Assembly: GCA_000092065.1 (NCBI GenBank)
Contig: CP000599.1
Direction: 5' to 3' (one strand)
Length of the DNA stretch: 64,000 bases
Source of the DNA: Ostreococcus lucimarinus
Taxonomy: Eukaryota
The notes under the pieces were generated by a model, which ran no database searches, was not told where the DNA came from, and saw only the letters and a program-made list of their open reading frames with translations. Positions 12,316-63,355 of the stretch are shown here, in pieces. Position 1 is the first letter of the stretch. Every line of letters starts with the position of its first letter. A program made the position numbers and the translations under genes.

Positions 12316-12877
12316 TCACGCGGCGGGCGCGCTCGATCGCGTCGGACGCGAGCCTCGTAAGCGCGGCTGTCGGACGCGCTCGAAGAATTCTTGCCAAAAC
12401 GGGAGCTCGTACGCGCGACCGACCTCGCGAGCGATGTCCCACGCCGAGACGAGGCCGACGAAGACGCCGTCTCGGTCGGTGACGGCGACGTGGTGCACGC
12501 GATTGCGCATCAGCACGGCGCTCACCTCATCGCGCGTCATCCACGGACTCGCCTGAATCACCGCCTTGTTCGCCACCGCGCCGCACGCGCAGTCCATGGG
12601 AAGCTTTTCGAGCCACCACTCCAGCGCGTCCGCCTTGGTGACGACGCCGACCGGTTTCCCGGCGTCGAGCACGCACACGCACCCGACGCCGTCGTAGGCC
12701 AGCGCGTGTACGACGCTCTCGATCGTATCGTCCGTCGTCGCCGTGATGCACCTGCGCGAGCGAAACGCGCGCGCGCGGTTCAGTCGAACGTCCTCGCGCG
12801 CGCCGTCGCCTCGTCGTCTCGCGCGTCGCCGCGTCGCGCGTCGTCGCCTCGCGCACGCACGCGCGCGCGGGGGTCAT
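12316..12877 (-). CDS. CBS-domain pair protein; proposed 2-exon model complement(12316..12751), complement(12861..12877)
   Basis: The CBS pair is clear: CITATTDDTIESVVHALAYDGVGCVCVLDAGKPVGVVTKADAL ... VSAVLMRNRVHHVAVTDRDGVFVGLVSAWDIA. The CBS reading frame has no in-frame ATG upstream. An ATG at 12877-12875 in another frame can be joined by a 109-nt intron (GTGCGTG donor at 12860, CAG acceptor at 12754-12752), giving MTPARA|CITATT.... This is inference. Confidence 0.55.
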
Positions 12878-13014
12878 GAAATCTCGGCACGTCGGCACCA
12901 TCGTCGGCGAGTCGCGCGTTCGGTCGGTCGGTCGGTCCGTCGGTCGCGCGTTCGTTCGTTCGGTCGCGCGTCGAGCTTTGCGAACTCCCCCCCCCGTCGG
13001 TTCGAGGCGCTTTG

Positions 13015-13100
13015 ATGCGTCGTCTAAATATCTAATTATATGGCCCTATACCATTCTTAGTACGGTCTCGTACTCGTATTTAAGTATACATACCATCTGT
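13015..13100. promoter_or_regulatory. AT-rich bidirectional promoter island between CBS gene(-) and ARM-repeat gene(+)
   Basis: taaatatctaattatatggccctataccattcttagtacggtctcgtactcgtatttaagtatacataccatctgtatacatagg. Confidence 0.35.
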
Positions 13101-13308
13101 ATACATAGGAGAGCCGTTGCGACGCCCGCGCGGCACACGTCCACGCGCGCCCGCGTCCTCGCGCGGCGCCGGCGCGCGCGCGCGCGGCGCGACCCGATCG
13201 TGTTCGCCCCCGCGCGCGCCCGCATGCGCGCTCGCGCGCTCGAACGCGCCGCGGACGAAGGATTCGACGAATAATCTTTAGAATTTCACATTCGCACTCG
13301 CGCGCGCG

Positions 13309-15375
13309 ATGTCGCGCGACGCGCTCGGAGAACGCTCGACGCGGACGTTGACGGCGTACGGACGTCCGTCGACGTCGCCGCTGGCGGAGAGCGCGAGAGA
13401 ACTGGCGAGGACGACGATGGCGGGACGACTTCGGGACGCGGCGACGACGACGCGACGAGGACGGCGAGACGACGAGGGCGAGGACGAGTACGAGAGCGCG
13501 ACGACGACGAGCGAGACGACGAGCGCGACGGCGAGTTTGATTGGGTCGTCGGTGATCGAATTCGGGCGCGAGCGGGAGGGCGCGAGGAGACTGCGGGGGA
13601 GGGATCGGTTCGGAACGGCGGCGCGGCGCGAACGATTCGAAGAGTCGAAGCGAACGGCGAAGACGCGAGGGACGTTTGACGTGGCGGAGAACGCGAGATT
13701 GGCGCTCGAGGCGAAGGAGGCGCAGTTGCAGAAGATGGCGGCGCGATTGCGAGCGTTGGAGCGCGAGCGGGAGCGGGAGCGCGGGCGTGAGATGGACGAG
13801 GAGCGGGAGACGTTTGCCGACGCGGCGAACGATTTAGAGGGGGAGATGGCGGCGGCGATGGCGAGGTTACGAGGCGACGCTGGCGGCGCGACGACGTCGC
13901 GTCAGCAGACGACGAAGTCGTCGCGCGCGCGCGAGGACGCGGGCACGTTTGCGTTCGCCCCGGATGCTTTCGCGAGTCGCGACGGCGACGACCCCGCGAC
14001 GCCCGAGCTGCCGCGCGGGCGAGGCAAAGCGGAGGAACACGGCGATGACGTCGAGATGACGAAGACGCCGGAGATAAAGCCGATGCACCCACCGCGCGCG
14101 CCACCGTCAGAGCGCTCGGACGCCGAGATTTCGGAGTCGAAGACGCCTGAACCGATCAAACCAGGCGTACGCGTGGACGGCGGATACCTCACGCCGAGCG
14201 GTCGAGTCGTCGGGAGCGCGTTGAAATCGGGTTCGTCGAAGCCGAAGACGCCGAACGAATCCAAGTCCGTCGTATTCACACCCGGAGAGATCGCGCAGTA
14301 CTCGGACGCGGGAACGCCGTTCGACGCGGCCGATGTAGAAGAGTTGCGCGCCGAGCTCCGCGAAGTCAGGGCGGCGCTCAAGAGCGCGTTCAGCGTGAGT
14401 GAAAAACTCGTCGCGCAGTGCGAAAAGAAGAATAGGGAGATCAAGGAAAAGAATACGAGCGTCATGCTCGCGCGCGAGGAGCTGGAGAACGCGCGCGCAG
14501 CGCTCGAGCGAGCGCAAAAAGAAGCGCTAGAGGCGAAGAAGTCCGTCGCCGGCGTCCCGGCGGGCGATCTCGCCGAGGCGTACGAAAAGAGCAAACGTTT
14601 GAATAGCGAACTCTTGCGCGTGATGCGCGCGTCGATCGGGGTGAATGTCGAATTAAGTCCGGACGTTGTGTTCGCAATTCTACCCACGCTCGCGAGCTTA
14701 GCCGTGCGGGGAGACGTCGCCGAGGCCATGGCGCAGGGCGGCGCCTTGGACGCCCTCGCGGGAGCGTTGGATTTGTTCGCGCACGACCCCGCGGTTTGTC
14801 GCAAAGCCATCGCCGCGATCGAATCTATTTGTCGCGCCGGATCTCCCGACGCTAGCGGGGCGACTCAAGACGAAGAGATCATCGCCATTCGCTCGAGATT
14901 GACGAACGAAGCCGTGGACGCGTGCGGCGCCGCCGTGGCGCGATGCGCGTACGATCACGTCGCCGACGCGCGATTGAGCGAAGCCATTTGCGCGCTCGCG
15001 CACGCGTTCGCCGAGATCGGCGATTATGATCGCGTTCAGTTCTTGATTGGACGTGAATGCGCGCTGGTGCAAGCGATTTGCAAGATCTCTAAGACGCACG
15101 AGCACGACGAGCGAACGCAGCGCGCGTCTTCGTTGGCGCTCGCCGCGTTCGCCGCGTGCGACGAGAACACCAAGCGCGTCGTCGAAAGTCTCGGTGGCAT
15201 CGCGCTCATCAAGCGGTGCGTGCAGGAACTCGGAATAGATGACGCGCAGCGCGCGTTTCCGCACGTCAAGCGATGGATTTCCGGGAAGAAGACGCGCGAG
15301 GACAGAGAACGCGGCGCCCGCGGTTTCGACTCGGACGACGGCGAAGCCGACGTCGACGTCACGGGAAATCTATGA
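13309..15375 (+). CDS. hypothetical protein with N-terminal coiled-coil and C-terminal armadillo/HEAT-like repeats
   Basis: ATG at 13309. The N-terminal half is E/R-rich coiled coil. The C-terminal ~250 aa shows repeated helical units (ALDALAGALDLFAHDPAVCRKAIAAIESIC..., ICALAHAFAEIGDYDRVQFLIGRECALVQAIC..., VESLGGIALIKRCVQ) typical of ARM/HEAT folds. Confidence 0.5.
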   Translation: MSRDALGERSTRTLTAYGRPSTSPLAESARELARTTMAGRLRDAATTTRRGRRDDEGEDEYESATTTSETTSATASLIGSSVIEFGREREGARRLRGRDRFGTAARRERFEESKRTAKTRGTFDVAENARLALEAKEAQLQKMAARLRALERERERERGREMDEERETFADAANDLEGEMAAAMARLRGDAGGATTSRQQTTKSSRAREDAGTFAFAPDAFASRDGDDPATPELPRGRGKAEEHGDDVEMTKTPEIKPMHPPRAPPSERSDAEISESKTPEPIKPGVRVDGGYLTPSGRVVGSALKSGSSKPKTPNESKSVVFTPGEIAQYSDAGTPFDAADVEELRAELREVRAALKSAFSVSEKLVAQCEKKNREIKEKNTSVMLAREELENARAALERAQKEALEAKKSVAGVPAGDLAEAYEKSKRLNSELLRVMRASIGVNVELSPDVVFAILPTLASLAVRGDVAEAMAQGGALDALAGALDLFAHDPAVCRKAIAAIESICRAGSPDASGATQDEEIIAIRSRLTNEAVDACGAAVARCAYDHVADARLSEAICALAHAFAEIGDYDRVQFLIGRECALVQAICKISKTHEHDERTQRASSLALAAFAACDENTKRVVESLGGIALIKRCVQELGIDDAQRAFPHVKRWISGKKTREDRERGARGFDSDDGEADVDVTGNL

Positions 15376-15459
15376 TGAATCTTAGTGTTGGCTATTTATA
15401 ATCTAATTTCTACTAGCAGCGATCGAACGAGCGTTTCGCCCGACTCGGCCGCGCCCGCG

Positions 15460-16600
15460 CTAACTCGACGCGTCGTCCGAACGTTTCTCTCGCGCGCCGA
15501 TGAACGCCGACATTTCCACCGCCGCCGTTCGAGTCGGCGACGCGTACGCGTCGTCGTCGTCGTCGTCGTCGTCGTCCATCGTCGCGCGCGTGAGCACGAC
15601 GAACCCATCGCCCGCGGCTCGAGCCCCGCCCTCGTCGTCGCCCTCGTCGTCGTCGCTCGCGAAATCGACGTCGTCCGCGAGATCTCCCAACCCCGTCTGC
15701 GCGTCCTCCGCGCCGACCCCCCGCGCTCGCGCCGAGAGCCGCGCGCACCCGAACGCCGTCGCCAACTCCACCGCCATCTCCCCTCGCGCCGGGTGCGCCA
15801 ACACGAACACGATCGCGTGCACCGCCCCCTGCGACGTCTTACACGCGACGTGCGCGCACGCGAGCCACAGCGCCGGCTTCGCTCGCCCCGCCAGCGTCGA
15901 CGCCCGCAGCGCCGTCCCCGGCACGTTCGTCACCACCTGCGCGATCGGGTACCACGCCAACCGTCGCACGTACGTCCGCAATCGCGCGTGCGCTCGCCGC
16001 GCCGTCGCGTCGTCGCGCCCCAACGTCGCCTCGAGCGCCGCCGCGCTCGCCATCCCGCGACGAATCGCGCGCCAGCAGCGCGCGTTGTAACAAAACGCCG
16101 CCCAAATCGGGACGTAATAAAAAACCAACCGGATTGTCGCCGCGCGCCTCCCCTCCGATTTCACGTGACACCGCCCCAGCCTCGAATCGCCGTACGCGTT
16201 CGCGAGCATCGGCGCGAGCGCCGACGCCGCGCACGCCGTCCACGCGAATCCGTCCTCGCGTCGCGCGTCGCCCCTCGCGCGTCCCGCGCGCAGGCTCTCC
16301 ATCAGCGCCCGCGACACGAGCGCCGCCCACACCGCGCCGGCGACGCCGAACGTCTGTATCAACGCGCCCTGCAAAGCGCAGATCGCGCCGCCGCGCGCGC
16401 CGCGATCGCCGAGCGCGCACGCCGTCGAAAACATCAAATCGCTCAGCGCCAATCGTTTCACGTACGCGTACGTCCTGCCGCGCGTACTGCGCGTCGCGAT
16501 CGCGCCCGCGAGGAGCACGAACGACGCGCCGGCGATCGACGCCGCTGAAGCGACGCGGTTCGTCGCGCGCACGATCGCGCGTTCGTCGGGCGTCCACGAC
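15460..16600 (-). CDS. seven-transmembrane receptor-like protein (GPCR-like) with acidic poly-Asp C-terminal tail
   Basis: I count seven hydrophobic helices from MSWTPDERAIV (ATG at 16600-16598) onward: SIAGASFVLLAGAIA, LALSDLMFSTACALG, ALIQTFGVAGAVWAALV, AWTACAASALAPML, LVFYYVPIWAAFCY, WYPIAQVVTNVPG and LWLACAHVACKTSQGAVHAIVFVL. The track ORF continues upstream (16601-17727) but that part is Arg-rich and overlaps the USP gene, so I exclude it. Confidence 0.5.
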
Positions 16601-16839
16601 ATTGTGGATTGAAAATTCGCGATCCGATGATTCGCGTCGCGATCGCGCGGCGTTCGGTTCGACGCGCGTCTCGATCGTCTCGGAACGTGTTCGCGATCGT
16701 TTACGACGCGTCGACGCGTCGACGCGCGGCGCGCGCGCGGCGCGATCGCGCGATTCGACGCGGGGGCGATCGATCGACGGCGGTGATTCGCGGACGCGAA
16801 CGCGAACCGTCGCGATCGGACACTCGGGTATAGGTATTG

Positions 16840-16910
16840 TGTTTCATATGATAAATATAATGTATAGAACGTGATAGTAATAAAAGGTAGTCGTATATAT
16901 AGGATGCACG
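16840..16910. promoter_or_regulatory. AT-rich bidirectional promoter island between 7TM receptor-like gene(-) and USP(+)
   Basis: gtataggtattgtgtttcatatgataaatataatgtatagaacgtgatagtaataaaaggtagtcgtatatatagg. It shares GTAT(A/G)GGTATTGTGT with the SOD/CCS island. Confidence 0.4.
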
Positions 16911-16956
16911 TCGTGCGCGACGGCCGGCCGCGACGGTTCGCGCGACACGACGACGC

Positions 16957-17767
16957 ATGGCGAACGCGACGGACGCGTCGGCGATCGTCGACGACCGCGC
17001 GACGACGGCCGACGACGACGACGACGTGACGAGCTCGATGCGCGCGCTGCGCGTCGGCGACGACGGCGAGGACGAGGACGCGCCTCGACGCGCGCGAACG
17101 ATACTGTGCCCGGTGACGGAGCGCGACGACGACGCGAACGCGGTGAAGTGGGCGCGCGATAATCTCGTCGACGCGAAGCGCGGCGATTGCGTGCACTTGC
17201 TTCACATTCTGCCGCGGCGAACGGAGGCGGTGGCGGGGTACGCGTACCCGATGATGGGGGCGCCGACGCGGCGAGGTGGGCGCGTCTCGTCTCGCGCGCG
17301 CGCTCTCGTCTCGCGCGCGCGCTCTCGTCCCGGCGGCGGCGGCGAAGGCGCGAGACGACTGACGGTTCGGTTCGCGAACGCGAGCGCGCGCAGCGTGCGA
17401 AGAGCTCGAAGACGCCGAGCGCGAGCGCAAGCGATTGGATCGCGTCAGGGCGAAACACTGGATCAACGCAAAGTTTGGACGAATGTTGCGCGAGAGCGAG
17501 ACGCCGTACCTCGTCGATTTGACGTGCGGATCGCAGGGGAACGTGGCCGTCGGCGAACTCATCACGGCCGTCGCGGAGGCGATCGACGCGGACGTGATCG
17601 TGATGGCGACGCACAATCGAGGCGCGCTCGCTCGATTCTTCGTCGGATCGGTGGCGAATTTTTGTTTGCGAAACGCCACGATGCCCGTCGTGCTGTTACG
17701 TCCGGGCGAGTACGCGCTCGATCGCAAGCGCAGTCATCACCGCGTGTTGATCGACAGACACGATTAG
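16957..17767 (+). CDS. universal stress protein (UspA-family); proposed join(16957..17275, 17394..17767)
   Basis: USP N-terminal motif ILCPVTERDDDANAVKWARDNLVDAKRGDCVHLLHILP lies in frame 1. The USP C-terminal motif PYLVDLTCGSQGNVAVGELITAVAEAIDADVIVMATHNRGALARFFVGSVANFCLRNATMPVVLL lies in another frame. A 118-nt phase-1 intron (GTGGGC donor at 17276, CAG acceptor at 17391-17393) joins them. That join gives 54 aa between the two conserved blocks, the same spacing as in a plant USP I aligned from memory. Confidence 0.6.
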
Positions 17768-17833
17768 ACGAGTCGCGCGCGCGGGCGCGAATCGATGAAA
17801 ACGACGATCGATTTCTTTACAAACACCGTCAAA

Positions 17834-18920
17834 TCACGTGAGATCGTCCTCCTCGGCTTCCACGGCGGCGACGATGCGCTTCTTAGCCTTTAATAGCATC
17901 GTCGTCTTCCAACCGTCGAGCCTGGACATGGAGTCGAATTCCGCCACCGCGCTCGAAAACGCGTCTTGATCGCCCGCCTCGAACGCCTTGGCGCAATTCA
18001 CCAACAAATCGCGCTCGCGCGACGACGCGAACGCCGGGTCGCTCTCCTCGTATCGCTCGCACGCGTTCAGCACCCCGACGGCGTCGTTCCAGCACAATCG
18101 ACAGATCCCCGCCTGTAAAAAGTACCCCTTCACCGAGAACCGCAGTAAATTGTTATTCAACGACGCGCGTCCGACGTCCTCAAAAATCTCCGTCGCCTCT
18201 TCGAATCGATCGAGCTTGCTCGCCAGCAGCGTCGCCGCCTTCAGTTTACAATTATTCCCCGTCGTCCGTCCCGAGTCGCCCTCGCCGTCGTACAGATCCG
18301 CCGCGCTCGAGAACGCCTCCACCGCGCGTTCATCCCCCTCCGCCGTCCCCAGGCTCTCGTACGTCTCGCCGATCTCCTTCAAATGTTTCGCCGCCTGCGC
18401 CAGTCGTCCCAATCGCGCGTACGCGTTCGACGCTTCCCTGTAGTGTCCGATCGCCTCCTCGTTCGCCCCGCACTTCTTCAGCATCTGCGCGCAGTCCACG
18501 TGCGCCGACGCCGCGTCGTGCGTCTCCTTCGTCGTCGCTCTGCACGTCGCCAGCGCCTCGTACGCGTCCGCCGCTCTTCGCCAGCTCTTCGCCAGCTTAA
18601 ACGACGTCGCCGCGCGCTCGTACAGCTCCGCCGCCTCCTCGTGCCTGTTCGCGCCCGTGATCGCGCTGAAGAATCCAACGCTCTGTCGTCGTCGTTCAGT
18701 CGGTCGCGCCGTCGTCAGTCGTCCTTCGTTCCTTCGTTCGTTCGTTCGTTCGTTCGCATTCATTCATTCATTCATTCGCGTCGATCGTTCGCGTCGAGCG
18801 CGCGCGTTCGCGCCGCTCGAGCGCGTCCGATCGCGCGCTCGCGCGCGCGCGTCGCACCCTGAGTTTCTTGGCCGCCGCGGCGCAGAGCGCGTCGCCGCGC
18901 GCGAGATCGTCGTCGCCCAT
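17834..18920 (-). CDS. alpha/gamma-soluble NSF attachment protein (SNAP); join(complement(17834..18682), complement(18858..18920))
   Basis: Exon 2 (SVGFFSAITGANRHEEAAELYERAATSFKLAKSW...DGWKTTMLLKAKKRI) is collinear with alpha-SNAP throughout. Exon 1 (MGDDDLARGDALCAAAAKKLR; ATG at 18920-18918) aligns with the alpha-SNAP N-terminus (...EAMALLAEAERKVK). The intron is 18683-18857 (175 nt) with a GTGCGA donor and CAG acceptor, and it contains a (CGTT/CATT)n microsatellite. TGTAA lies 16 nt after the stop on the minus strand. Confidence 0.75.
18700..18790. repeat. tetranucleotide microsatellite (CGTT)n/(CATT)n inside the SNAP intron
   Basis: Plus strand reads tccttcgttccttcgttcgttcgttcgttcgttcgcattcattcattcattcgcg. 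Confidence 0.8.
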
Positions 18921-18985
18921 CGATCGATCGATGCGTCGCGCAGTGCCGCACACGACGACGCGACGCGCCGACGCGTCGACGTCGA

Positions 18986-19771: not shown

Positions 19772-19851
19772 GCGCGGCGCGTGTAATTACCTACGTAGCT
19801 ATCCACTAAATCGACGCTAAGCGTCCTAATAAGACTACGTCGCGTCGCCGT

Positions 19852-30672: not shown

Positions 30673-31646
30673 ATGCGTCCGAGCGGTCGACTTTTGCGCG
30701 CCTTCAAGGGGTGGTTGGACACGCGCGCCGTCGTGCGCGTCGCCGGCGCGGACGCCGCGGCGTTTCTGCAGGTGCGCTCGATGTTTACGTATCGCCATCG
30801 TTTCAAAACTGACGCGACGACCAGGGCGCGGTGACGAACGACGTGCGCGCGCTGCGCGAGGGCGGCGACGCGGCGTACTGCGCGACGCTCACGCCGAAGG
30901 GAAAAATCTTCGCCGACGCGTTCGTTCGACTCGCCGGGAGCGAATCGGATGAATTTTTATTGGACGTCGATCGAGAAAAGTCGAGCGAATTTTTGCGCGC
31001 GCTCAGGATGCTGAGCCTGAGGAAACGGGTGACGATCGAGGACGCGAACGAGCATCGCGTCGTCGTCGCGAGCGCGGACGCGGACGTCGGGGATTCGAGC
31101 GCGCGCGCGGTGCGGAGGGACGAGCGATTGGAACAATTAGGGTTTAGGGGTATAGTGCCCGCGTCCGACGCGGCGTGGCGCGACGCGGTGGCGGACGCGC
31201 ACGCGCGAACGCGAATCGCGCTCGGCGTCGCCGAGGGCGCGAGCGAGCTCGCGAACGCGTTACCGCTCGAGTGCAATTTCGACGCTTTGAACGGCGTGAG
31301 TTTCACCAAAGGGTGCTACGTCGGGCAAGAGAACACGGCGAGGCAGCGGTTTCGAGGGGTCGTGCGCAAGCGCATCGCGCCTTTCGTTGCGATCGAACCC
31401 GGCGCGCGCGCGCCGAGCGTCGGGGGAAAAATCGTAAACGAACGCGGCGACGTCGTGGGTGATGTCATCGCGGCGATCGAAGACGAGGACGCGGTCTTGG
31501 GTTTGGTGCGCGCGCGCATGAGTTTCATTCGCGCGCACGTTGCGGGCGAACCAGGGTCGGCGTTTCGAATCGCCGACGGCGCGCGCGTCGGCGTCGAGCC
31601 CCCGAGTTGGTGGCCGACCGAGTGGCTCGACGCCGCCGAGGAGTGA
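30673..31646 (+). CDS. IBA57: YgfZ/IBA57 (CAF17) family folate-binding Fe-S cluster assembly factor; join(30673..30771, 30825..31646)
   Basis: Family signature KGCYVGQE (SFTKGCYVGQENTARQRFRGVVRKR). Exon 1 encodes MRPSGRLLRAFKGWLDTRAVVRVAGADAAAFLQ. Exon 2 begins GAVTNDV, reproducing the conserved GpdA..FLQGl.TNDV N-terminal motif of this family. The 53-nt intron 30772-30824 has a GTGCGC donor and CAG acceptor. Confidence 0.75.
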
Positions 31647-41810: not shown

Positions 41811-42460
41811 TCACGCGGAGGGCGCCAACGCGAGGACGCCGCACGCCAAGCGCTGCGCTCGCGTAAACCGAAGCGATCGATCGTCCGTCAGTCGAAAGCC
41901 GCGTGCGCGAAAAACGAAACCCTAAACGCGCGTCGAAATCGCGTCGCGTCGAGTCGCGATCGTGGAAATCGCGTCGAAATCGCGTCGTCGACGCACCGCT
42001 CCGGCGTTGCCCGTCGTCTTCGACGTCTTGCCCTGGGTGCCGATCTCAGAGCTATCGCCCTTGCCGAGATCGTCCTCGAGCTCGTGAATCACGAACGCGC
42101 GTCCGATGATCGAGTTCGCCCCGCTCAGCGGAATCTGCGAGTCCTCGATGACGAAGTCGCACCCGCCCGCGGTGGCCTCGACGTTGCCGAGGTCGCCCGC
42201 GTGTCGCGTCGCGTCCGTCGGCGCGCCGTGATCCATCTTGTTCGGGTTAAAGTGCGGTCCCGTGGACATGCACCCGTTCGTCGTATCGCCGAACTCGTGA
42301 ATGTGCAGGCCGTGCTTGCCCGGCGCGAGTCCGGTGATGGAGCCGACGACCTTCGTCGGCGCGTCGCCGCTCTGGCTCAGCTTGAGCACGCCCGACACCC
42401 CCGCGGTGCCCGTGAGCACGCACACCGCCTGCTTTTGCTCCGCCGTCACCGCGACCGCGC
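41811..42460 (-). CDS. Cu/Zn superoxide dismutase; 3' exons complement(41811..41852) and complement(41997..~42455); 5' exon(s) not resolved
   Basis: [19 protein letters not shown]...[23 protein letters not shown]...RHAGDLGNV...[18 protein letters not shown]...TGNAGA is followed by a GTGCGT donor at 41996. The CAG acceptor at 41855-41853 gives the terminal exon [13 protein letters not shown], which completes the canonical GNAG.RLACGVIG end. The track ORF 41922..43901 (659 aa) is a composite artefact. Confidence 0.7.
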
Positions 42461-42759
42461 GAGGGCGATGCGCGGACGTCTTCGTCGACCTGCGATCGCG
42501 CGCGCCGGCGTTCGCGCGCGCGTCAGTCGTCGCGTTCGTCGCGGGTTTAGGTTCGTCGCGTCGTCGCGCGTCGTCGCGCAGCGCGTCGCTCGAGCGCACC
42601 GCGCGCACGCGCACTTGGCGCCGCAGAGGTGGGTCTTGGAGGCGAGCGTCGCCGATCGGGAGAGCGTCTGCATGGCGCGGCGTCGGGCGTCGTGTGTCGG
42701 CGATGACGTGGCGAGGGCGCGAACGCGCCCTCGTCGCCATCATTCGAGGGCCTTTATAT

Positions 42760-42900
42760 ACGTATATTTCGTAGAAATATACTTTATATTCGGAAACATG
42801 TCGTATGGGTATTGTGTCTGTGGTTATAATTGGTAGTATCCGAATATTCGGACACACGGCGTATGCGTATTGTGTATATACACATAATTGGTAAAAGTCC
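42760..42900. promoter_or_regulatory. AT-rich bidirectional promoter island between divergent Cu/Zn-SOD and CCS genes; contains a ~60-bp tandem duplication
   Basis: The units tattcggaaacatgtcgtatgggtattgtgtctgtggttataattggtagtatccga and tattcggacacacggcgtatgcgtattgtgtatatacacataattggtaaaagtccga form a local AT-rich island in ~70% GC surroundings. Confidence 0.45.
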
Positions 42901-43070
42901 GAGCGCGCCGACCGTCGGCCGCGCGCCGCACGTCGCGACGCGCGATCGCGCGACGCCCGATCGCGTCCCGCGCGACGCCCGCGGACCTTCTCGACGCCTC
43001 GACCCGATCTTAACCGCCCGCGACCCGCGCGCGCGACACCCGAGGCGTCACGTCGACGACGACGCGCGTC

Positions 43071-44033
43071 ATGATTCCGTCGACGCCGCGCCTTCGCGCC
43101 GCCGCGCCGCGTCGCGTCGTCGACCGCGCGTCGCGATCGCGAACGCGGTCGCGATGCCGACGCGCGCTCGAACGCGCCGACGCGCGGACGAAAGACCTCG
43201 AGCGGGCGTTGGAATTCATGGTGGAGATGCGGTGCGGAGGGTGCGCGGCTAAGGTGACGACGGCGTGCGAGGCGCTCGCGGGCACGACGCGCGTCGACGC
43301 GTCGCTCGGGACGAACACGGTGACGGTGATCACGCGCGATGCGGAGCGAACGGTCAGGGAGGCGATCGAGAGCGCCGGGTATAAGGCGCGATTGATCGGG
43401 CAGGGGCGCGCGGAGCGAAGCGCCGAAGACGACGACGATTTCGGCGAGGCGCTGGCGGAGGCGCTGGGCACGGACGTGCGGACGCTGCGACAGAGCCTGG
43501 CGGCGGTGGCGGAGTTTAAGGGGAAGGCGTACGGGCACGGTGAGGCGCGAGGGACGGTGCGGCTGGTGCAGGTGAGCGAGGAGACGATATTGGCGGAGGC
43601 GGCGCTGGACGGGTTGAGTCCGGGGGCGCACGCGATTCGCGTGCACGAATACGGGGATTTGACGCGCGGGATGGATTCGATCGGGGACGTGTACGGGGGG
43701 GAGGGAGGGGCGGGGATGATCGGGATCGTCGTCGCGGACGAGAATGGGTCGGCGACGATGCCGTCGACGATGTTGAGCTCGGAGCTCAAGGCGTGGGACG
43801 TCATCGGTCGAAGCGTCGCCGTGTACGCCGCCGCGGACGGCGATACGACCGGCGCGGTGTGCGCCGTGCTCGCTCGAAGCGCGGGCGTGGGGGCGAATCA
43901 TAAAAAGTTGTGCCAGTGCGATGGGACGATCATCTGGGAGGCGGGCGAAGATTTCTTGCCCCGCGCGGTGGACGAATGCGACGCCGCGAGACCGCTGCTC
44001 GGCAAAGGAATCACCACCGCTCGGCGCGGGTGA
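43071..44033 (+). CDS. CCS: copper chaperone for superoxide dismutase (CCS)
   Basis: Three-domain CCS layout: an Atx1-like HMA domain with the [10 protein letters not shown] metal-binding MxCxxC; a SOD1-like domain ([25 protein letters not shown]); and a C-terminal CxC motif (KKLCQCDG). ATG at 43071. Confidence 0.75.
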
Positions 44034-46804: not shown

Positions 46805-46985
46805 GTCGACGTCGCCCTATATATAATACGACGCGAAACCTCATATAATCCTCATCACGACACCCAACAGTCACACACACGTATGTCTCTCATCATTACT
46901 AAGTACCTTACGACTATATATACATATACCGTATGTCCGATATATGTTTATAGGTATCCGTGTACGTATATTAGTAAAATAACGT
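46805..46985. promoter_or_regulatory. AT-rich bidirectional promoter island between the divergent 44122-46803(-) gene and AGPase(+)
   Basis: ~180 bp at roughly 35-40% GC containing tatatata and gtatgt motifs and the 13-mer ccgtatgtccgat, which is also found in the 61360-61460 island. Confidence 0.4.
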
Positions 46986-47415
46986 CGAGCATTCGACCGA
47001 CGTTCCTGAGCCAGTCGTTACGCGCGCCATTTTCCGCCGCGTCGCGAATCGCCGATGCGCGCCGCGTCCCTCGCGCAGCGCGCCGCGCTCGCGCCTCGCC
47101 GCGTCGACGCCGAGCAAAGGTGCGCGCGCGACGCCCGCGCGACCGCGACGCCCGATCGACCGCGAACGCGAACGCGCGAGACGATCGCGTCGCGACGGAC
47201 GGATCTCGACGAGACGCGCGACGGATCGACGCGAACAGCGCGCGACGACGCGCGCGAGCCGCGAGAGACGCCGGATTCAAACGCGTCTCGCGCGTCGTCG
47301 GCGTCGCGCGACGGATCGACGCGCGCGCGGCGCGAGGGCGGCTCGGGACGCGCGACGCGGGACGGAGGATAAGACGAGACGCGAGAGAGACGACGAGCGG
47401 ACGCGAGACTGACGG

Positions 47416-48852
47416 ATGCGCGCGATGGGACGAAACGATAGGCGAACGGGAAGTGGGAAACGATGCGCGAAGCGCGCGACGCGATGCGATGTGGCGCAAT
47501 CGCCGGAACGGTCGACGACGGCGATCGCGAACTCGAAGACGGTGGCGGCGGTGATCCTCGGAGGCGGGGCGGGGACGCGATTGTACCCGCTCACGAAGAG
47601 CCGAGCGAAACCGGCGGTGCCGATCGGTGGGGCGTATCGATTGATCGACGTCCCGATGTCGAACTGCCTGAACAGCGGGATCTCGAAGGTTTACATTTTG
47701 ACGCAATTCAACAGCGCGTCGTTGAACCGACACTTGGCGCGCACGTACAACTTTGGTAACGGGATCATGTACGGTGGGAATGGTTTCGTGGAGGTGCTGG
47801 CGGCGACGCAAACGCCGGGTCAAGGCGGGAAGGAGTGGTTCCAAGGCACCGCCGACGCCGTGCGACAGTACTCTTGGTTGTTCAACGACGTCAAGAACAA
47901 GGACGTCGAGGACATCGTCATCTTGGCGGGCGATCACTTGTACCGCATGGACTACATGAAGTTCGTCGAGGCGCACAGAGAAAGCAACGCCGACATTACC
48001 GTCGGTACGTTGCCGATCGACGAAGAGCGCGCGAGCGATTTTGGTTTGATGAAGATTGACTCGTCGGGACGCATCGTCGAATTCACCGAAAAGCCCAAGG
48101 GCGACGCCCTGCAAGCGATGAAGGTGGACACCACCATTCTCGGTTTGACCGCGGCCGAGGCCGAGGCGAAGCCTTTCATCGCTTCCATGGGGATTTACGT
48201 CTTCAAGAAGTCGATGTTGGTCAAGTTTTTGGACGACGACTACCCCGAAGACAACGACTTTGGCGGCGAAATCATCCCGAAGGCGAGCGCCGACGGCGCC
48301 AGAGTGCAAGCGTACTTGTTCAACGATTACTGGGAGGACATTGGAACCATGAAGAGCTTCTTCGAGGCTAACTTGGCCTTGGCCAAGGACCCGCCGAACT
48401 TTGAGTTTTACAACGCCGAAGCGCCGATTTACACTTCGCCGCGCTTCTTGCCGCCGGCCAAGATTGAACGGTGCCACGTCAAGGACTCCATCATCTCTCA
48501 CGGTGCCGCTCTCGCGGATTGCTCCGTCGAAGAATCCATCGTCGGTTTGCGCTCGCGCGTCGAAGCGGGGACGAAGATCAAGCGCACCATGATCATCGGC
48601 GCCGACTTTTACGAGAGCGAGGAGAAGCGTAAAGCCATCTTAGCCGCCGGCGGCGTCCCGGTCGGGATCGGCGAGAACACCATCATCGAGAACGCCATCA
48701 TCGACAAGAACGCGCGCGTCGGGAAGAACTGCGTCATCACCAACAAGGACAACATCGAAGACTTGGCCGACGAAGAGCGCGGCGTCTTCATCCGCAACGG
48801 CATCGTCACCATTCTCAGAAACTGCACCATCCCCGACGGGACGGTCATCTGA
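47416..48852 (+). CDS. glucose-1-phosphate adenylyltransferase (ADP-glucose pyrophosphorylase)
   Basis: [65 protein letters not shown] matches the AGPase N-terminus. The protein is collinear through the left-handed beta-helix C-terminus. ATG at 47416; a transit-peptide exon may lie upstream. TGTAA ~75 nt after the stop. Confidence 0.85.
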
Positions 48853-54793: not shown

Positions 54794-54829
<36 letters not shown>

Positions 54830-55580: not shown

Positions 55581-55612
<32 letters not shown>

Positions 55613-55656
55613 CGACGGGGCGCGACGGTCGCGGGACGCGCGCGATCGAGCGCGCG

Positions 55657-56940: not shown

Positions 56941-57131
56941 GCGCGCCGTCGGCGCGACTTCGACGTCGACGCAACTTTTTATCCACGCAATCAACATCCA
57001 TGCACCGCATTAAACCGTCTTCGAACGCCGCGCGCTCGACGAACCGCGATCGCGGCGCCGACCCTCGACGCGGCGTTCGATACCGACGCCGCGTTCACGG
57101 AGCGCGCCAACGCGCACCTCTGGAACCTATG

Positions 57132-57369
57132 AATGACGCGAATCGCGCATCAGATACCGCATTCACGCGCTCTAACGCGTACATCTCAACCCTGATCCGC
57201 GCGATAAATGACGCGAATCGCGCATCAGATACCGCATTCACGCGCTCTAACGCGTACATCTCAACCCTGATCCGCGCGATAAATGACGCGAATCGCGCAT
57301 CAGATACCGCATTCACGCGCTCTAACGCGTACATCTCAACCCTGATCCGCGCGATAAATGACGCGAATC
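57132..57369. repeat. 75-bp tandem repeat x3.2 in the 5' region of the MiaB-like gene
   Basis: The unit aatgacgcgaatcgcgcatcagataccgcattcacgcgctctaacgcgtacatctcaaccctgatccgcgcgata starts at 57132, 57207, 57282 and, truncated, 57357. The copies are essentially identical. Confidence 0.9.
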
Positions 57370-57498
57370 CCTCGCGCCGCGCGCGGCCGCGGCGTCGGCG
57401 CGACGTCGCACTCGCGCGCGCGCTCGACGCCCGACCGCCGCTCTCGCGCGCGCGCGCCGAATCCGCGCCCTCGCCGAATCCGCGCGCGCTCGCGAGCG

Positions 57499-59328
57499 AT
57501 GGCGACGCCGCGCGCGGCGGCGGCGGCGGTGGCGGCGCGACCGTCGACGCCGCGCCGACGCGCGCGCGCGCGCGCGGGCGACGGGCGACACCTCGACGCG
57601 ACGGCGGACGCGGTGCGCGCGGCGGGCGTCGCGGCGCGGCGCGCGGCGCCGCGAACGGGACGCGCGGAGGACGGGGAGGAGGACGCGCGGGGGCGACGCG
57701 CGGTGTACGTGGAGACGTACGGGTGCCAGATGAACGTGAACGACTCGGAGGTGATGATGGCGGTGCTCGAGGGCGCGGGGTACGACGAGACGAAGGAGGT
57801 GAACGACGCGGACGTGATTCTGATCAACACGTGCGCGATTCGGGATAAGGCGGAGGCGAAAATTTGGCAGCGGTTGGCGTACTTTCGATCGCTGGGGAAC
57901 GGGAAGAAACGGAGCGAAAAGCCGGTGGTGGGCGTGCTGGGATGCATGGCGGAGAGGATCAAGGAGAAGTTGTTGGAGGCGGATAGGCTGGCGGACATCG
58001 TGGCGGGACCGGACGCGTATAGGGATTTGCCGAATCTCATCGACGCCGTCGTCGGGAATCCGGGAGGGAAGGCGATGAACGTGCAGTTGAGCGTGGAGGA
58101 GACGTACGCGGACATCATTCCCGTGCGCGAGGCGGGGTCGCACTCGGCTTTTGTCACCATCATGCGCGGGTGCGACAACGCGTGCGCGTTTTGCATCGTG
58201 CCGTACACGCGCGGACGCGAGCGCTCGCGCGATTTGGCGAGCATCATGTACGAGATTCGTCTTTTGAGCGAACAAGGGGTGAAAGAGGTCACTTTGCTCG
58301 GGCAAAACGTGAACTCGTACGCGGGAGAGCCCGCGAGCGCGACGACGACGGATTTCTTGAGCTCACTGCGAGGCGAATCCAAAGACCCGATCGCCGAGCT
58401 CGCGAACGCGTCGACGGAACGTTTGGCGAGCGCGAGCGGTAGCGCGTTCGTCGGCTACGCCGATGGCTTCGCGAGTCGGTACGATCCCGAGCGCAAGCGA
58501 GCGGGGACGATTCAATTCGCCGAGTTGCTCGATAAAGTCGCGAGCGTGGATCCCGAGATGCGCATTCGTTTCACGTCGCCGCACCCGAAGGATTTCCCCG
58601 ACGACGTCTTGCGAGTGATTCGCGATCGACCCAACGTGTCGAAGTGCTTGCACATGCCCGCGCAGAGCGGGTCGTCGGCTACCTTGGAGCGCATGGCGCG
58701 TGGGTACACGCGCGAGTCTTACTTTGCCCTCATCGATCGCGTCAAGGCGATGATTCCGGGGTGCGCCATCACCACGGATATCATCAGCGGCTTTTGCGGC
58801 GAGACCGAGGACGATCACGAGGACACCGTGAGTTTGATGAGCGCGATCGGATACGAACAAGCGTTCATGTTCGCTTACAGCGAACGCGAGGGCACGGCGG
58901 GGCAAAGACACCAAATCGACGACGTCCCCGAAGACGTGAAGCAGCGGCGTCTGCAGGAAGTCATCGACGCCTTTCGAGCGCGCGCGGCGGAGAAGCAACA
59001 GATGGAGATCGGTTCCACGCATTGCGTGTTGGTGGAGGGTCCGAGTAAGAAAAACTCCGACGAGTGGACGGGGAAGACGGACACATCGAAGTGGGTGGTG
59101 TTCGAAAAGAATGATGCCATCGGCAAGTACGCCGGCGACGAAGACGCGCCGACGAGCGGGTCGTACGGCGTCAAGCCTGGAGATTACGTCGCCGTTCGCG
59201 TCACTGGGTGCAGTACGGGGACGTTATTTGGTCAAGTTCTCGGTAAGACGAGTTTGGTAGAGTTTCAAAACTTGCACGGCGCGCAGTGGACGACGCCAAA
59301 GTCGAGCAACGGCGCGAGCGCGCGTTGA
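57499..59328 (+). CDS. radical-SAM tRNA methylthiotransferase, MiaB/CDK5RAP1 family, organelle-targeted
   Basis: Collinear with MiaB: MTTase N-terminal domain (VYVETYGCQMNVNDSEVM...LINTCAIRDKAE), radical-SAM CxxxCxxC (MRGCDNACAFCIVP), TRAM domain at the C-terminus. A/R-rich presequence. ATG at 57499. TGTAA 9 nt after the stop. Confidence 0.85.
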   Translation: MATPRAAAAAVAARPSTPRRRARARAGDGRHLDATADAVRAAGVAARRAAPRTGRAEDGEEDARGRRAVYVETYGCQMNVNDSEVMMAVLEGAGYDETKEVNDADVILINTCAIRDKAEAKIWQRLAYFRSLGNGKKRSEKPVVGVLGCMAERIKEKLLEADRLADIVAGPDAYRDLPNLIDAVVGNPGGKAMNVQLSVEETYADIIPVREAGSHSAFVTIMRGCDNACAFCIVPYTRGRERSRDLASIMYEIRLLSEQGVKEVTLLGQNVNSYAGEPASATTTDFLSSLRGESKDPIAELANASTERLASASGSAFVGYADGFASRYDPERKRAGTIQFAELLDKVASVDPEMRIRFTSPHPKDFPDDVLRVIRDRPNVSKCLHMPAQSGSSATLERMARGYTRESYFALIDRVKAMIPGCAITTDIISGFCGETEDDHEDTVSLMSAIGYEQAFMFAYSEREGTAGQRHQIDDVPEDVKQRRLQEVIDAFRARAAEKQQMEIGSTHCVLVEGPSKKNSDEWTGKTDTSKWVVFEKNDAIGKYAGDEDAPTSGSYGVKPGDYVAVRVTGCSTGTLFGQVLGKTSLVEFQNLHGAQWTTPKSSNGASAR

Positions 59329-59366
59329 CGCGAGCGATGTAAAATTACACACAATCTAATCATTAT

Positions 59367-61283
59367 TCATCTTTCGTCGACGACCGATTCTTCTTCCGCT
59401 TCATCCTTCGCCCGCACGTATCGTCTCTTCAAGCCGAGCGCCAACGCGACGTCTTCCGCGACGTCTTCTGCTCGAGTGTCCACGACGCACGTGACGTAAA
59501 ACGGTCCCTCCTGCCCCGTGCGCGCCGTGCGTCCGCATCGGTGCACGTGCATCTCCATGGACGGCGCCGCGCCGTACTGCACGACGTGATGTAATTGCGG
59601 AAAATCGATTCCACGCGCCGCGAGATCGGTGCACACGCACGTGGTGAGCTCACCGGAGATGAAATCGTCGAGGACGACGCCGCGCTCCTTCGCCTTGCCG
59701 TGAAACGCGAGCGCGACGACGTCGCGCTCGTCGAGTTTTTGCACGACTTCATCCGCCTCTTCGGGAGAGTTGACGAAGATGAGCGTTTTGTACTGTTTGT
59801 GCCGTTCGAGCGCGTCGGCCAAGGCGGCGAATTTCGCCTCGGCACCGTCGACGTCGTCCACGCGCGTCTTGAGCTGCGGATGCACGCGACCGAATTGCGC
59901 CGTCGAGATCCACTCGAATTCGTCCGCCGCTTCCGCCGGAAATGCGTCGAGCAGAGGCTGCGCCTCGCGCATCGTAGCCGCGGCGAAAACGTACTGCACG
60001 CGCGCGTCGAATCGATTGACCCCACCCTCGCCGTACGTCGCGGCGATGATACCGCCGACGTCGCGAGCGAAACCGCTCGACAACATTTCATCCGCCTCGT
60101 CCACGACGACGTGACGCAAACGACCGAGCAACACCCACTCGTCTTTGATGAGTTTCAGCAAGCGCGCGGGCGTGCACACGAGGATATCGGCGTTGCGAAA
60201 TTCCGGAATCGCCTCCTCGTCTCCCGCGAGCTTCGACTTGTCCGCCGACGTGGATTTCGTCTTTTTCGCTTTGCCCGTCTTGGCGCCGCCCTTGGATTTC
60301 GGTCTCACCAACTTCTTCTCCTTCCCGAGCAGCGCGAACACGCTCGGCGTCGGCACGTCCGCGCTCGCGCTGCTCCAATACGCCGCGAGTTCGGCGGCGT
60401 GCGCGACCTGTCTCCCCAGCTCCACGCTCGGCGTCAACGCGACGCACGCGGGACAACATCGTCCGCTTCGCTTCGTCCCTTTCCTCCCCGGCGTCGTCAT
60501 CGACGCCAATATCGGCAGCAGGTACGCGAACGTCTTCCCCGACCCCGTCTCCGCGAGCAACACCGCGGACTTCCCCCGAACGAGCTCCGGAATCGCCAAT
60601 CGCTGAATCTCCGTCGTCCGCCGCAACCCGGCGTCTCGCGCGTTCGCCGCCAATCCCGCCGGCAATCCCGCCCTCTCGAGCGCGTTCGCCCCCCCCGAAT
60701 CCCCATTCGCGCCCTCTCGCGCCTCTCTCTCCGCGCGCCGCGCGTCCCTCGCCCTTCTCGCCGCCTCCCACGGCCGTTCCGTCCCTCGCTTATACGCCGT
60801 CGCCGCCTTTCCCGAATCCGCCCTCGTCGTCTCCGACCCCCCGTCTCGCCGTCGAATCCTCCCATCCACCGCCCGCGCGTCGACGTCCTCCCCCATCATT
60901 CGCGCCCATCCGCTCAGGCCCTCGTCCTCGCCCCAGTACGCGTCTCGCGCGCGCGTCGCGTCGCCTCTTCTCGTCGCGTCGCGTCGTCGCGTCGCCCTCG
61001 CGAGCGCCGCCGCGCTCGCCGCGCGAAATCCCGCCTCGTCGTCGTCGTCGTCGCTTCGGCGCGCGTTTGAGTCGCGCGTCAATCGCGCGTATTTCGCGTC
61101 GTTCGTCGACGCCCACGAGCGCGCGCGCGGCCGTCGCGCGTCGAGGGCGTCGTCGCCGTCGCGCGTCGAGCCGGCGGCGGCGACGACTCGTCGCGTCGTG
61201 TTCGCGTCCGCGCGCCGCGACGCGACGGGAAAACGACGCGACGACGCGACGGGCGTCGCGCGCGGCGCGAATCGCGCGGGCAT
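59367..61283 (-). CDS. DEAD-box ATP-dependent RNA helicase
   Basis: Motif I AETGSGKT, Ia, II VVDEADEM, III, V ARGID and VI HRCGRTAR are all present. Q-motif region upstream. ~230-aa low-complexity N-terminal extension. Confidence 0.8.
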   Translation of the reverse strand: MPARFAPRATPVASSRRFPVASRRADANTTRRVVAAAGSTRDGDDALDARRPRARSWASTNDAKYARLTRDSNARRSDDDDDEAGFRAASAAALARATRRRDATRRGDATRARDAYWGEDEGLSGWARMMGEDVDARAVDGRIRRRDGGSETTRADSGKAATAYKRGTERPWEAARRARDARRAEREAREGANGDSGGANALERAGLPAGLAANARDAGLRRTTEIQRLAIPELVRGKSAVLLAETGSGKTFAYLLPILASMTTPGRKGTKRSGRCCPACVALTPSVELGRQVAHAAELAAYWSSASADVPTPSVFALLGKEKKLVRPKSKGGAKTGKAKKTKSTSADKSKLAGDEEAIPEFRNADILVCTPARLLKLIKDEWVLLGRLRHVVVDEADEMLSSGFARDVGGIIAATYGEGGVNRFDARVQYVFAAATMREAQPLLDAFPAEAADEFEWISTAQFGRVHPQLKTRVDDVDGAEAKFAALADALERHKQYKTLIFVNSPEEADEVVQKLDERDVVALAFHGKAKERGVVLDDFISGELTTCVCTDLAARGIDFPQLHHVVQYGAAPSMEMHVHRCGRTARTGQEGPFYVTCVVDTRAEDVAEDVALALGLKRRYVRAKDEAEEESVVDER

Positions 61284-61359
61284 CGCGCGCTCGACGCGCG
61301 CGCGGGAGCGCGGTCGCGAGGTCGGCGCGGCGCGCGACCGATTCGATGCGATACTCCAT

Positions 61360-61460
61360 CATGGGGTTAAAATATATTTATATATGTACTGGTTCGTCTA
61401 TGGGTTTGTGTGTATTTATATATGTACCGTATGTCCGATGTGTATATTTATGTATAGACG
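61360..61460. promoter_or_regulatory. AT-rich bidirectional promoter island between DEAD-box helicase(-) and bL19(+)
   Basis: ggggttaaaatatatttatatatgtactggttcgtctatgggtttgtgtgtatttatatatgtaccgtatgtccgatgtgtatatttatgtatagacg contains ccgtatgtccgat. Confidence 0.4.
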
Positions 61461-61630
61461 CACACACGACGCCATTCGAGGGTTTCGCGCTGTGCGACGC
61501 GCGACCGCACCTCGCGACGCGACGCGCGACGACGAACGACGCGTCGCGAAACGCGCGCGCACGTTTATTTACCGCCGCTCGACGCGACCGCCGAAGCTCG
61601 CTCGACGCGACCGCGACGCACACGCGGACG

Positions 61631-62542
61631 ATGATGACGACGACGACGACGACGCCGGCGCGCGCGACGGCGACGCGGGCGACGCTCGCCGCGCGACGCG
61701 CGACGTCGATTCGCGGCGCGCGATGCGCGCGACCGACGCACACTGCGACGCTTCAACGCTCAACGCGTCGAGCGCGCGTCGAGATCGCGTGCAGCGCGAC
61801 GAAGACGGCGCACTCGTACAGCCACACGAACAAGAAGGGTTTGTCGGCGTACGTCGAGCGCGCGAGCGCGCGACAGACGAAGCGCGATCTGATCCCGTTC
61901 CGAGTCGGGATGACGCTGAGGGTGGGCGTGACGGTGAAAGAAGGGAATAAGACGCGGGTGCAACCCTTCGAGGGGGTGGTGATCGGGATTCACCGCGCGG
62001 GCGTGGCGACGACGGTGACGGTGCGGAAAACCTTGCAGGGGTTCGGCGTGGAGCGAGTGTTTCCGGTGCACTCGCCGTTGTGCACGTTCGAGGAGGTTCG
62101 CGGCGCGGGTAAACCGGTGGTACGTATTTTATTGAGCGTCGACGCGGGCGCGACGGCGCGACGGCGCGACGCGGGACGCGCGAGGACGCGAGACGCGACG
62201 CGCGCGGATAACCCTCGAGCCGCGCGACGCGGACGACTGACCTCGAGCGATCTCTTCTTCATTTTCTCCGCGCAGGTTCGTCGCGCGAAATTATTCTACC
62301 TCCGCCGATTGGTGGGCAAACAAGCGCGCCTGAAGACGCGCTTCGTGTCCAAGCGCGAGGGCAAGACGAGACACGAGATCAAGATGGAAGCCATGCGCGC
62401 CGAGGACGCGCGTCTGCAAGCCGTCGCCGACGCCGAAGCCGCCGCCGCCGCCGCCGCCGCCGAGGCCGCCGCCGCCGCCGAGGCCGCCGCCGCCGAGGCC
62501 GCCGCCGCCGAGGCCGCGTCTTCGGAGGAACCCGCGGAGTAG
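61631..62542 (+). CDS. organellar (bacterial-type) ribosomal protein bL19; proposed join(61631..62119, 62276..62542)
   Basis: bL19 core RVGMTLRVGVTVKEGNKTRVQPFEGVVIGIHRAGVATTVTVRKTLQGFGVERVFPVHSPLCTFEEVRGAGKPV | VRRAKLFYLRRLVGKQARLK. The removed 156 nt (GTACGT donor at 62120, CAG acceptor at 62273-62275) are in frame and stop-free, but encode non-homologous R/A-rich sequence. T-rich transit peptide (MMTTTTTTPARATA). C-terminal poly-Ala/Glu tail. Confidence 0.7.
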   Translation: MMTTTTTTPARATATRATLAARRATSIRGARCARPTHTATLQRSTRRARVEIACSATKTAHSYSHTNKKGLSAYVERASARQTKRDLIPFRVGMTLRVGVTVKEGNKTRVQPFEGVVIGIHRAGVATTVTVRKTLQGFGVERVFPVHSPLCTFEEVRGAGKPVVRILLSVDAGATARRRDAGRARTRDATRADNPRAARRGRLTSSDLFFIFSAQVRRAKLFYLRRLVGKQARLKTRFVSKREGKTRHEIKMEAMRAEDARLQAVADAEAAAAAAAAEAAAAAEAAAAEAAAAEAASSEEPAE

Positions 62543-62753
62543 AGCTTTTAACGCATCGATTCATCACCACGAACGCGTCTTCGCCTCGACGCCCGGCGCC
62601 CGGCGCCGCGCCCCCCCCGGTCACCCTCGCGTCGTCGCGATATCCCTCTTTCACCACCCCGAATACGTACTCAAACCTCATATTTTACCCAACTGTAAAC
62701 CTAACGAATCCCACTCGCCGCGCCATCGCGCCGCACTCCGCGACGCGCGCGCC

Positions 62754-63355
62754 ATGGCCGCCACGATCACGCTCCGCTCGTCCGACGACGAGACCTTCGA
62801 GGTCGACGAGGACGTCGCTTTGTGCGTGCCCGCGCGTGTCGCGACGCGCGAATCGCGACGCGCGAATCGCGACGAAGGAATCGCGTCGAACGATTCGAAA
62901 CCTCGACGACCGACGACCGACGACCGAGGACTGACGAGACGCGACGACGACGCGCGCGCGACGACAGCCTGTCGGAGACGATTAAATCCATCATCGAGGA
63001 CACGGAGAACGACGCGCCGGTGCCGCTGCCGAACGTGAACTCGAAGATTTTGACCAAGGTGATCGAGTACTGCAAGTATCACGTCAAGGCGAAGAAGGAG
63101 AACGAATCCGAGGCGAACGTGAAGGCGTTCAACAACGATTTCGTCAAGGTGGACCAGGCGACGCTGTTTGAAATCATTCTGGCGGCGAATTACTTGAACA
63201 TGAAGGGGCTGCTGGACTTGACGTGCATGACGGTGGCGAACATGATGAAGGGGAAGACGCCGGAGGAGATTCGTAAGACGTTTAACATCAAGAATGATTT
63301 CACGCCCGAGGAGGAAGAGGAGGTTAGGAAGGAAAATCAATGGGCGTTCGATTAA
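62754..63355 (+). CDS. SKP1: SKP1 (SCF ubiquitin-ligase adaptor); join(62754..62821, 62968..63355)
   Basis: Exon 1 [22 protein letters not shown](F) and exon 2 [38 protein letters not shown]...[32 protein letters not shown] are collinear with plant/human SKP1. Phase-2 intron 62822-62967 (146 nt) with GTGCGT donor and CAG acceptor. Confidence 0.85.

Follow-up and report, generated by a model that had tools for sequence, protein, structure and literature searches.

The stretch analyzed here, 64,000 nucleotides (nt) of Ostreococcus lucimarinus contig CP000599.1 (assembly GCA_000092065.1) and hereafter called the window, has a G+C content of 64.2% and carries about 36 genes, which a codon-usage scan of its 64 kb finds densely packed on both strands. 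The O. lucimarinus genome has been annotated since 2007. An earlier note had placed short introns in seven genes of the window, four on the plus strand and three on the minus strand, which encode a CBS-domain protein, a universal stress protein (USP), alpha-SNAP, the YgfZ-like protein IBA57/CAF17, a Cu/Zn superoxide dismutase (SOD), the organellar ribosomal protein bL19 and SKP1. The seven intervals, in window coordinates, are as follows.

12752..12860, minus strand: CBS-domain protein intron, 109 nt, phase 2, donor GTGCGT, variant branch site GACTGAAC 28 nt before CAG
17276..17393, plus strand: universal stress protein intron, 118 nt, phase 1, donor GTGGGC, branch site GACTGACG 31 nt before CAG
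18683..18857, minus strand: alpha-SNAP intron, 175 nt, phase 0, donor GTGCGA, branch site GACTGACG 32 nt before CAG
30772..30824, plus strand: IBA57/CAF17 (YgfZ-like) intron, 53 nt, phase 0, donor GTGCGC, branch site AACTGACG 12 nt before CAG
41853..41996, minus strand: Cu/Zn-SOD 3' intron, 144 nt, phase 0, donor GTGCGT, branch site GACTGACG 35 nt before CAG
62120..62275, plus strand: organellar ribosomal protein bL19 intron, 156 nt, phase 0, donor GTACGT, branch site GACTGACC 35 nt before CAG
62822..62967, plus strand: SKP1 intron, 146 nt, phase 2, donor GTGCGT, branch site GACTGACG 33 nt before CAG

Each of these intervals interrupts a conserved protein and its removal restores that protein, and we are highly confident that all seven are canonical U2-type (GT-AG) spliceosomal introns in nuclear genes of O. 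lucimarinus. Every one begins with GT and ends with CAG on the coding strand, and for each a single splice phase joins two long open frames. The lengths, strands, terminal bases, donor hexamers and junction peptides of the earlier note were all recovered at these coordinates, and its tally of five GTGCG[T/C/A] donors, one GTACGT and one GTGGGC, with CAG at every acceptor, was exact on re-reading. The spliced products restore the peptides it had singled out (with a slash at the junction, FLQ/GAVTNDV in IBA57, GNAGA/RLACGV in SOD and AKKLR/SVGFFS in SNAP) as well as MTPAR-A-CITATT in the CBS-domain protein and EVDEDVA-F-LSETIK in SKP1. In all seven spliced proteins a single continuous Pfam match spans the junction, the families being GCV_T/CAF17_C (with GCV_T itself running across the IBA57 junction), Skp1_POZ with Skp1, SNAP, Sod_Cu, CBS, Usp and Ribosomal_L19; the SNAP match covers profile positions 2-281 of 282 and the Sod_Cu match 1-132 of 133.

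When the spliced translations were looked up by exact sequence, five of the seven proved residue-for-residue identical to NCBI proteins of O. lucimarinus CCE9901, whose record of 154,676 bp is, judging by its size, probably one of the smallest chromosomes: IBA57/CAF17 (306 residues, XP_001422379.1), SKP1 (151 residues, XP_001422389.1), SNAP (303 residues, XP_001422423.1), the CBS-domain protein (158 residues, XP_001422421.1) and Cu/Zn-SOD, the last in a model that contains the 41853-41996 intron together with a second one described below. For IBA57 and for the CBS-domain protein, the claimed donor and acceptor are also the sole frame-preserving GT..AG pair within 24 nt on either side.

Intron-less contigs that resemble transcript assemblies exist for SNAP, SOD and bL19, and also for an ammonium transporter gene (Amt) that the earlier note had not listed as interrupted. 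The Logan contig over SNAP (L001), 99.8% identical to the window, lacks exactly the 175 nt from 18683 to 18857 and holds the 30-nt SNAP exon-exon junction. The grounds for regarding such contigs as transcript assemblies are structural: they are mRNA-sized or span overlapping untranslated regions (UTRs), and their introns are precisely missing. Indels whose length is not a multiple of three were restricted to introns in the comparisons with contigs and proteins. At SKP1, for example, the intron measures 132 nt in the strain behind one metagenome protein (P0026) and 146 nt in the window, which marks it as a non-coding length polymorphism. The claim of short spliceosomal introns with a GC-rich donor is thus backed by five protein identities, intron-less contigs, homologue alignments and a branch motif.

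That motif offers a test independent of the donor, since it was not used in the earlier placement of the introns. The word ACTGAC lies 12-35 nt before the acceptor in six of the seven introns (9/10 when the three additional introns below are included), and four of the seven, in SKP1, SNAP, USP and the 3' part of SOD, carry the full GACTGACG branch point. Its distance to the acceptor is mostly 26-35 nt, with 12 nt in the 53-nt IBA57 intron. The chance of finding ACTGAC in the branch zone of at least six of seven introns is about 3e-13. For the donor, GTGCG begins 5/7 introns, or 8/10 with the additional ones, and the chance of at least five GTGCG donors in seven, given GT, is about 8e-7 on the assumption that the boundaries were not chosen by the GTGCG motif. 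The exon base before the donor is G in eight of the ten introns, giving a signal set of G/GTGCGY at the 5' splice site, (G)ACTGAC(G) at the branch and CAG at the acceptor. Introns contain 12% T, compared with 18% in exons, and are rich in short tandem repeats.

ACTGAC occurs only 14 times in the window on both strands, and nine of these words fall inside the ten introns. Outside the claimed introns, three occurrences are preceded by a GTGCG donor and followed, after about 30 nt, by a YAG acceptor (CAG or TAG), and it was by scanning the window for this word that the following three introns were found.

2811..3173, plus strand: ammonium transporter (Amt) intron, 363 nt, directly after the start codon (ATGG/GTGCGTG), branch site GACTGACG 26 nt before CAG
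42490..42614, minus strand: Cu/Zn-SOD 5' intron in the transit-peptide region, acceptor CAG at 42490, branch site GACTGACG 33 nt upstream of it
47120..47441, plus strand: candidate 5' intron of ADP-glucose pyrophosphorylase (AGPase), 322 nt, phase 2, donor GTGCGC, branch site GACTGACG 29 nt before TAG

The earlier list of seven intron-bearing genes therefore stands in every entry but is incomplete, at least two more introns (Amt and SOD 5') being present and AGPase providing a candidate. The spliced Amt product of 433 residues is identical to XP_001422370.1, and four transcript-like contigs (L004-L007) join ...CATGG/CTGT... across the site. The AGPase candidate has the full signal set and an in-frame upstream ATG, and would link the exon MRAASLAQRAALAPRRVDAEQR to the main open reading frame (ORF). 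Its spliced model of 491 residues is not in the protein collection, a homologue search returned only short proteins of other species with unrelated transit peptides, and an in-frame ATG at 47416, inside the candidate, gives an unspliced alternative of 478 residues. The coding-potential profile lent no support to additional introns around CGL160 / CDP-alcohol phosphatidyltransferase (25.8-27.5 kb). A relaxed scan, which allowed CTGA[CAT] or CTAAC as branch words and GT[GA][CAG]G donors with coding flanks, returned mostly in-frame false positives within long uninterrupted ORFs; only the strict ACTGAC signature is useful. Taken together, GTGCGY, (G)ACTGAC and YAG are specific enough in this 64-kb window for introns to be located with no data beyond the sequence itself.

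The SOD gene illustrates what the second intron changes. Models with one intron, starting at various methionines, had no exact match in the reference because a second intron lies in the transit-peptide region. At this 5' intron three GTGCGC donors stand in tandem and in frame, one each at 42614, 42608 and 42599. The two-intron model with the donor at 42614 gives 197 residues and equals XP_001422430.1, while the donor at 42599 gives 202 residues and equals a Logan protein (P0202), whose cluster includes a 202-residue member (P0204) that is UniRef A0A7R9XRS4, a transcriptome protein. Two transcript-like Logan contigs of about 1 kb (L002 and L003) contain both SOD junctions, namely the 3' junction and the 42599 junction, not that of 42614. 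The reference SOD model thus appears to use another 5' donor than the transcripts do, which would mean either that the annotation is wrong or that alternative 5' splice sites are used within the transit peptide.

The SOD gene (41811-42673, minus strand) lies head-to-head with CCS, the copper chaperone for SOD (43071-44033, plus strand; a 320-residue ORF with HMA and Sod_Cu domains), with an AT-rich promoter region of about 400 bp between them. The two therefore form a divergent gene pair of chaperone and client.

Two rival readings would deny that the intervals are introns. If the frame breaks were assembly errors or pseudogene lesions, which GC-rich, repeat-rich and hence error-prone sequence might invite although nothing specific points that way, then the same interrupting sequences should not recur in independent environmental contigs, as they do (P0017, P0026, P0048, P0057 and P0082), nor should every interruption bear a full set of splice signals or intron-less RNA-like contigs exist; we consider this explanation close to negligible. 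Only slightly less improbable is that the intervals of multiple-of-three length, bL19 (156 nt) and SOD 3' (144 nt), are retained and translated insertions. The bL19 interval is stop-free in the exon frame, so that read-through would add 52 residues, and metagenome gene callers do emit such a read-through protein (P0082, 287 residues). The SOD 3' interval, however, contains one in-frame stop, and the two intervals share a GT[G/A]CGT donor, an ACTGAC branch word and a CAG acceptor. The bL19 junction GKPV/VRRAK is the same in transcripts of MMETSP (P0089, P0096 and P0117), in an O. tauri protein (P0090) and in bacterial bL19, and the stretch GAGK(P)(V)-VRRAKL runs uninterrupted through the transcriptome proteins of O. 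mediterraneus and Micromonas, the annotated proteins of O. tauri and M. commoda and the bacterial L19 proteins, all without the insertion. The 144 nt are absent from L002 and L003, and the 156 nt from a JGI contig (L008, Ga0182093_1060791; the one contig matched by a 24-nt junction probe), in which bL19 exon 1 abuts exon 2. In another O. tauri protein (P0118) this site is read through for 20 residues, which shows that the position of the bL19 intron is conserved in the genus. A donor 3 nt upstream (GTGGTA, giving GKP/VRRAK) was rejected: that model is absent from the protein collection, and the transcript orthologues read GKPVVRRAK. We therefore retain the spliceosomal reading for both intervals, with a bL19 gene of about 61631-62542 on the plus strand. 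No O. lucimarinus NCBI protein for bL19 was found by exact look-up from several start methionines or by homologue search. As for L008 itself, about 570 nt of its 2.5 kb match the window as spliced bL19 and its positions 1-1834 and 2400-2497 are unrelated; a protein that fuses a KH domain to L19 (P0107) was called on a contig of its length, apparently this one, and the contig is probably a chimeric assembly.

The USP intron is the least certain of the seven, and several of the observations that weigh against our reading gather there. Its donor, GTGGGC, is off the consensus; four alternatives within 24 nt would also preserve the frame, and three other acceptors nearby do so (-9 GAG, +9 AAG and +18 AAG); a 30-mer across the splice junction had no match in metagenome contigs; no O. 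lucimarinus NCBI protein for USP was found by exact look-up from several start methionines or by homologue search; and the sole RNA-like contig over the gene (L001) retains the intron. To these belong, beyond USP, the branch variant ACTGAA in the CBS intron (28 nt before the acceptor, with no exact ACTGAC in that intron), the failure to find a spliced transcript-like contig for IBA57, SKP1 and CBS as well as USP, and the fact that the RNA origin of L001-L008 is read from their structure. The residues beside the USP junction are, moreover, not conserved, and it is conceivable, though we think it unlikely, that the USP intron is real with boundaries other than 17276-17393, or that the gene is an unspliced, non-functional relic. 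Against this, only the claimed pair gives the spacing of 22 residues from MGAPT to RKRL found in three uninterrupted homologues (P0062, P0064 and P0065); the CAG acceptor lies within the normal distance range of a perfect GACTGACG, and CAG is the acceptor of all the other claimed introns; and both USP exons show coding potential. Retention in L001 is expected if this contig follows the SNAP transcript, which converges on USP, overlaps its 3' end and is antisense to it. L001 keeps the interval without one 19-nt tandem-repeat unit (17285-17303), a frame-breaking indel that coding DNA would not tolerate. Splicing at 17276-17393 accordingly remains our preferred reading of USP. For USP as for bL19, the gene may be missing from the reference annotation or modelled differently there.

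The neighborhood of USP (gene span 16957-17767, plus strand) is tightly packed. The coding end of SNAP (minus strand, stop at 17834) is 67 nt from that of USP (stop at 17767), so the 3' UTRs of the two genes must overlap, and L001 runs out of SNAP straight across antisense USP.

The earlier note had also proposed that the stop-poor sequence hides introns from mechanical ORF tracks, citing two long ORFs.

41922..43901, minus strand: 659-residue mechanical ORF comprising the central SOD exon, the SOD 5' intron, the 5' UTR, the AT-rich promoter and the antisense of the CCS gene
15460..17727, minus strand: 755-residue mechanical ORF made up of antisense USP, upstream sequence and a weak 7TM-like gene

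At 64% GC stop codons are rare, and in consequence six-frame ORFs cross introns, UTRs and antisense strands, and prokaryote-style callers give truncated or intron-containing proteins. The 659-residue ORF fits the proposal, as do the read-through ORFs of SKP1 and bL19: one metagenome ORF of SKP1 (P0017, 177 residues) takes the GTG of the donor as its start codon and reads through the intron, another (P0026, 195 residues) carries 44 extra residues from intron read-through, and P0082 does the same for bL19. The 755-residue ORF fits only loosely, since it lies antisense to USP rather than merging USP exons, and only its 3' part, about 15460-16520, has coding potential. Prokaryote-style calling on marine metagenomes routinely yields faulty Ostreococcus proteins, such as a truncated "YgfZ" of 271 residues, SKP1 of 177 and 195 residues and bL19 of 287 residues.

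Two observations may bear on natural variation at these introns. In an environmental contig from ENA (L009, k141_1409517), which is otherwise about 97-99.6% identical to the window over 13075-8250, the CBS intron of 109 nt is short of 94 nt. The deletion (contig positions about 214-330) is bounded by a CGCGCGCG microhomology and removes the donor and the branch site, leaving 15 nt in frame, and the resulting protein (P0050) reads ...TPARAFRSRRCITA... at this place. Tentatively, this could be an imprecise intron loss through genomic deletion in wild Ostreococcus, and the tandem SOD donors could point to alternative choice of the 5' splice site. An artefact is just as possible for both: template switching by reverse transcriptase or assembly collapse at the repeat in the case of CBS, and a mis-annotated donor in the case of SOD.

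Intron interiors consist of short tandem repeats that vary between strains (17280-17329 in USP; 62822-62967 in SKP1). At positions 10584-10780, within a minus-strand ORF of 1849 residues whose product matches the SAP domain weakly, a 33-nt unit occurs in six in-frame, near-perfect copies (TRF score 366), and L009 aligns to this array by BLAST in several overlapping pieces. Short intergenic AT-rich islands with GTATGTGTATATAC-like words, at about 2440-2640, 42800-42900, 46850-46990 and 61350-61480, look like promoter regions.

If these introns are processed as established knowledge of the spliceosome would predict, the donor would be read by U1 and later by U6. GUGCGU would pair imperfectly with a standard U1, with a G.U pair at +3 and a mismatch at +4. 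U2 would pair with ACUGAC, leaving the second A bulged as the branch nucleophile, and the acceptor would be the first YAG past the branch site. An Rfam scan of the window found no small nuclear RNA (snRNA) or other RNA at the gathering thresholds, and since the window holds no Rfam-detectable snRNA, it does not advance the question of U1/U6 complementarity. How a standard U1 snRNA handles a donor with C at +4 is a question already posed in the literature: Mamiellales have GYGCGY donors together with a standard U1 snRNA pairing sequence, the +4C being uncompensated (bioRxiv 10.1101/2022.06.08.495308).

Among known systems, Saccharomyces (GTATGT / TACTAAC) resembles the window in having few introns per gene, many of them near the 5' end, near-invariant donor and branch words and a constrained distance from branch to acceptor. 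The introns here differ in the G at +3 and C at +4 of the donor, in having G rather than A before the branch adenosine, and in being GC-rich and T-poor rather than AT-rich. Three other classes were considered and set aside. No donor or 3' region among these introns resembles the U12-type words (donor /[AG]TATCCTT, branch TCCTTAAC). The small introns of the low-GC region (chromosome 2 / BOC1), which have a weak GTRNGT donor (PMC2483917), lack ACTGAC and occur at high density, do not match a window of 64% GC with about 10 introns in about 36 genes and GTGCGY donors, and even the 53-nt IBA57 intron, unlike that class, has GTGCGC and AACTGACG. The IE-C introner elements of Micromonas RCC299 do share the GACTGACG branch motif (PMC3879977), but an all-against-all blastn of the ten window introns returned only short matches of low complexity (CGACG-type repeats) or of the signal motifs and no repeat family; the introns are mutually unrelated beyond low complexity and are therefore not introner elements.

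The closest likenesses are within the Mamiellales, and a total of about 10 introns in about 36 genes fits an intron-poor genome. The class seen here is that of the bulk of Mamiellales genomes, which is GC-rich and poor in introns: the canonical introns of Micromonas RCC299 and CCMP1545 have an AG/GTGCGT donor and an NCTGAC branch motif (Verhelst et al. 2013, PMC3879977), both in common with the introns of the window, and differ in a branch-to-acceptor distance of 43-52 nt, as against mostly 26-35 nt here. For O. lucimarinus itself, the donors have been described as having the "atypical consensus GTGCGTG" (a 4.8-bit donor; PMC2483917), and 319 introns from outside chromosome 2, confirmed by expressed sequence tags, contain ACTGAC in 87% and GACTGACG in 66.5% of cases (Irimia & Roy 2008, PLoS Genet, PMC2483917). 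The earlier note was thus right that a GC-rich donor consensus is unusual, but it is not a discovery: the GTGCGT donor and the ACTGAC branch were published in 2008 for exactly this organism, and the signals hold nothing new. What value is left lies in checking the annotation, that is, the USP and bL19 models, the SOD donor and the possible AGPase exon. In organism, GTGCGTG donor, GACTGACG branch and intron-poor, GC-rich context the 2008 set is the same as ours, and the frequencies in the window (GTGCG in 5/7 or 8/10, ACTGAC in 6/7 or 9/10) agree with its donor and with its 87% rate. There is no difference of substance between the two, the GTGGGC of USP, the GTACGT of bL19 and the ACTGAA of CBS being minority variants of the kind that those percentages allow.

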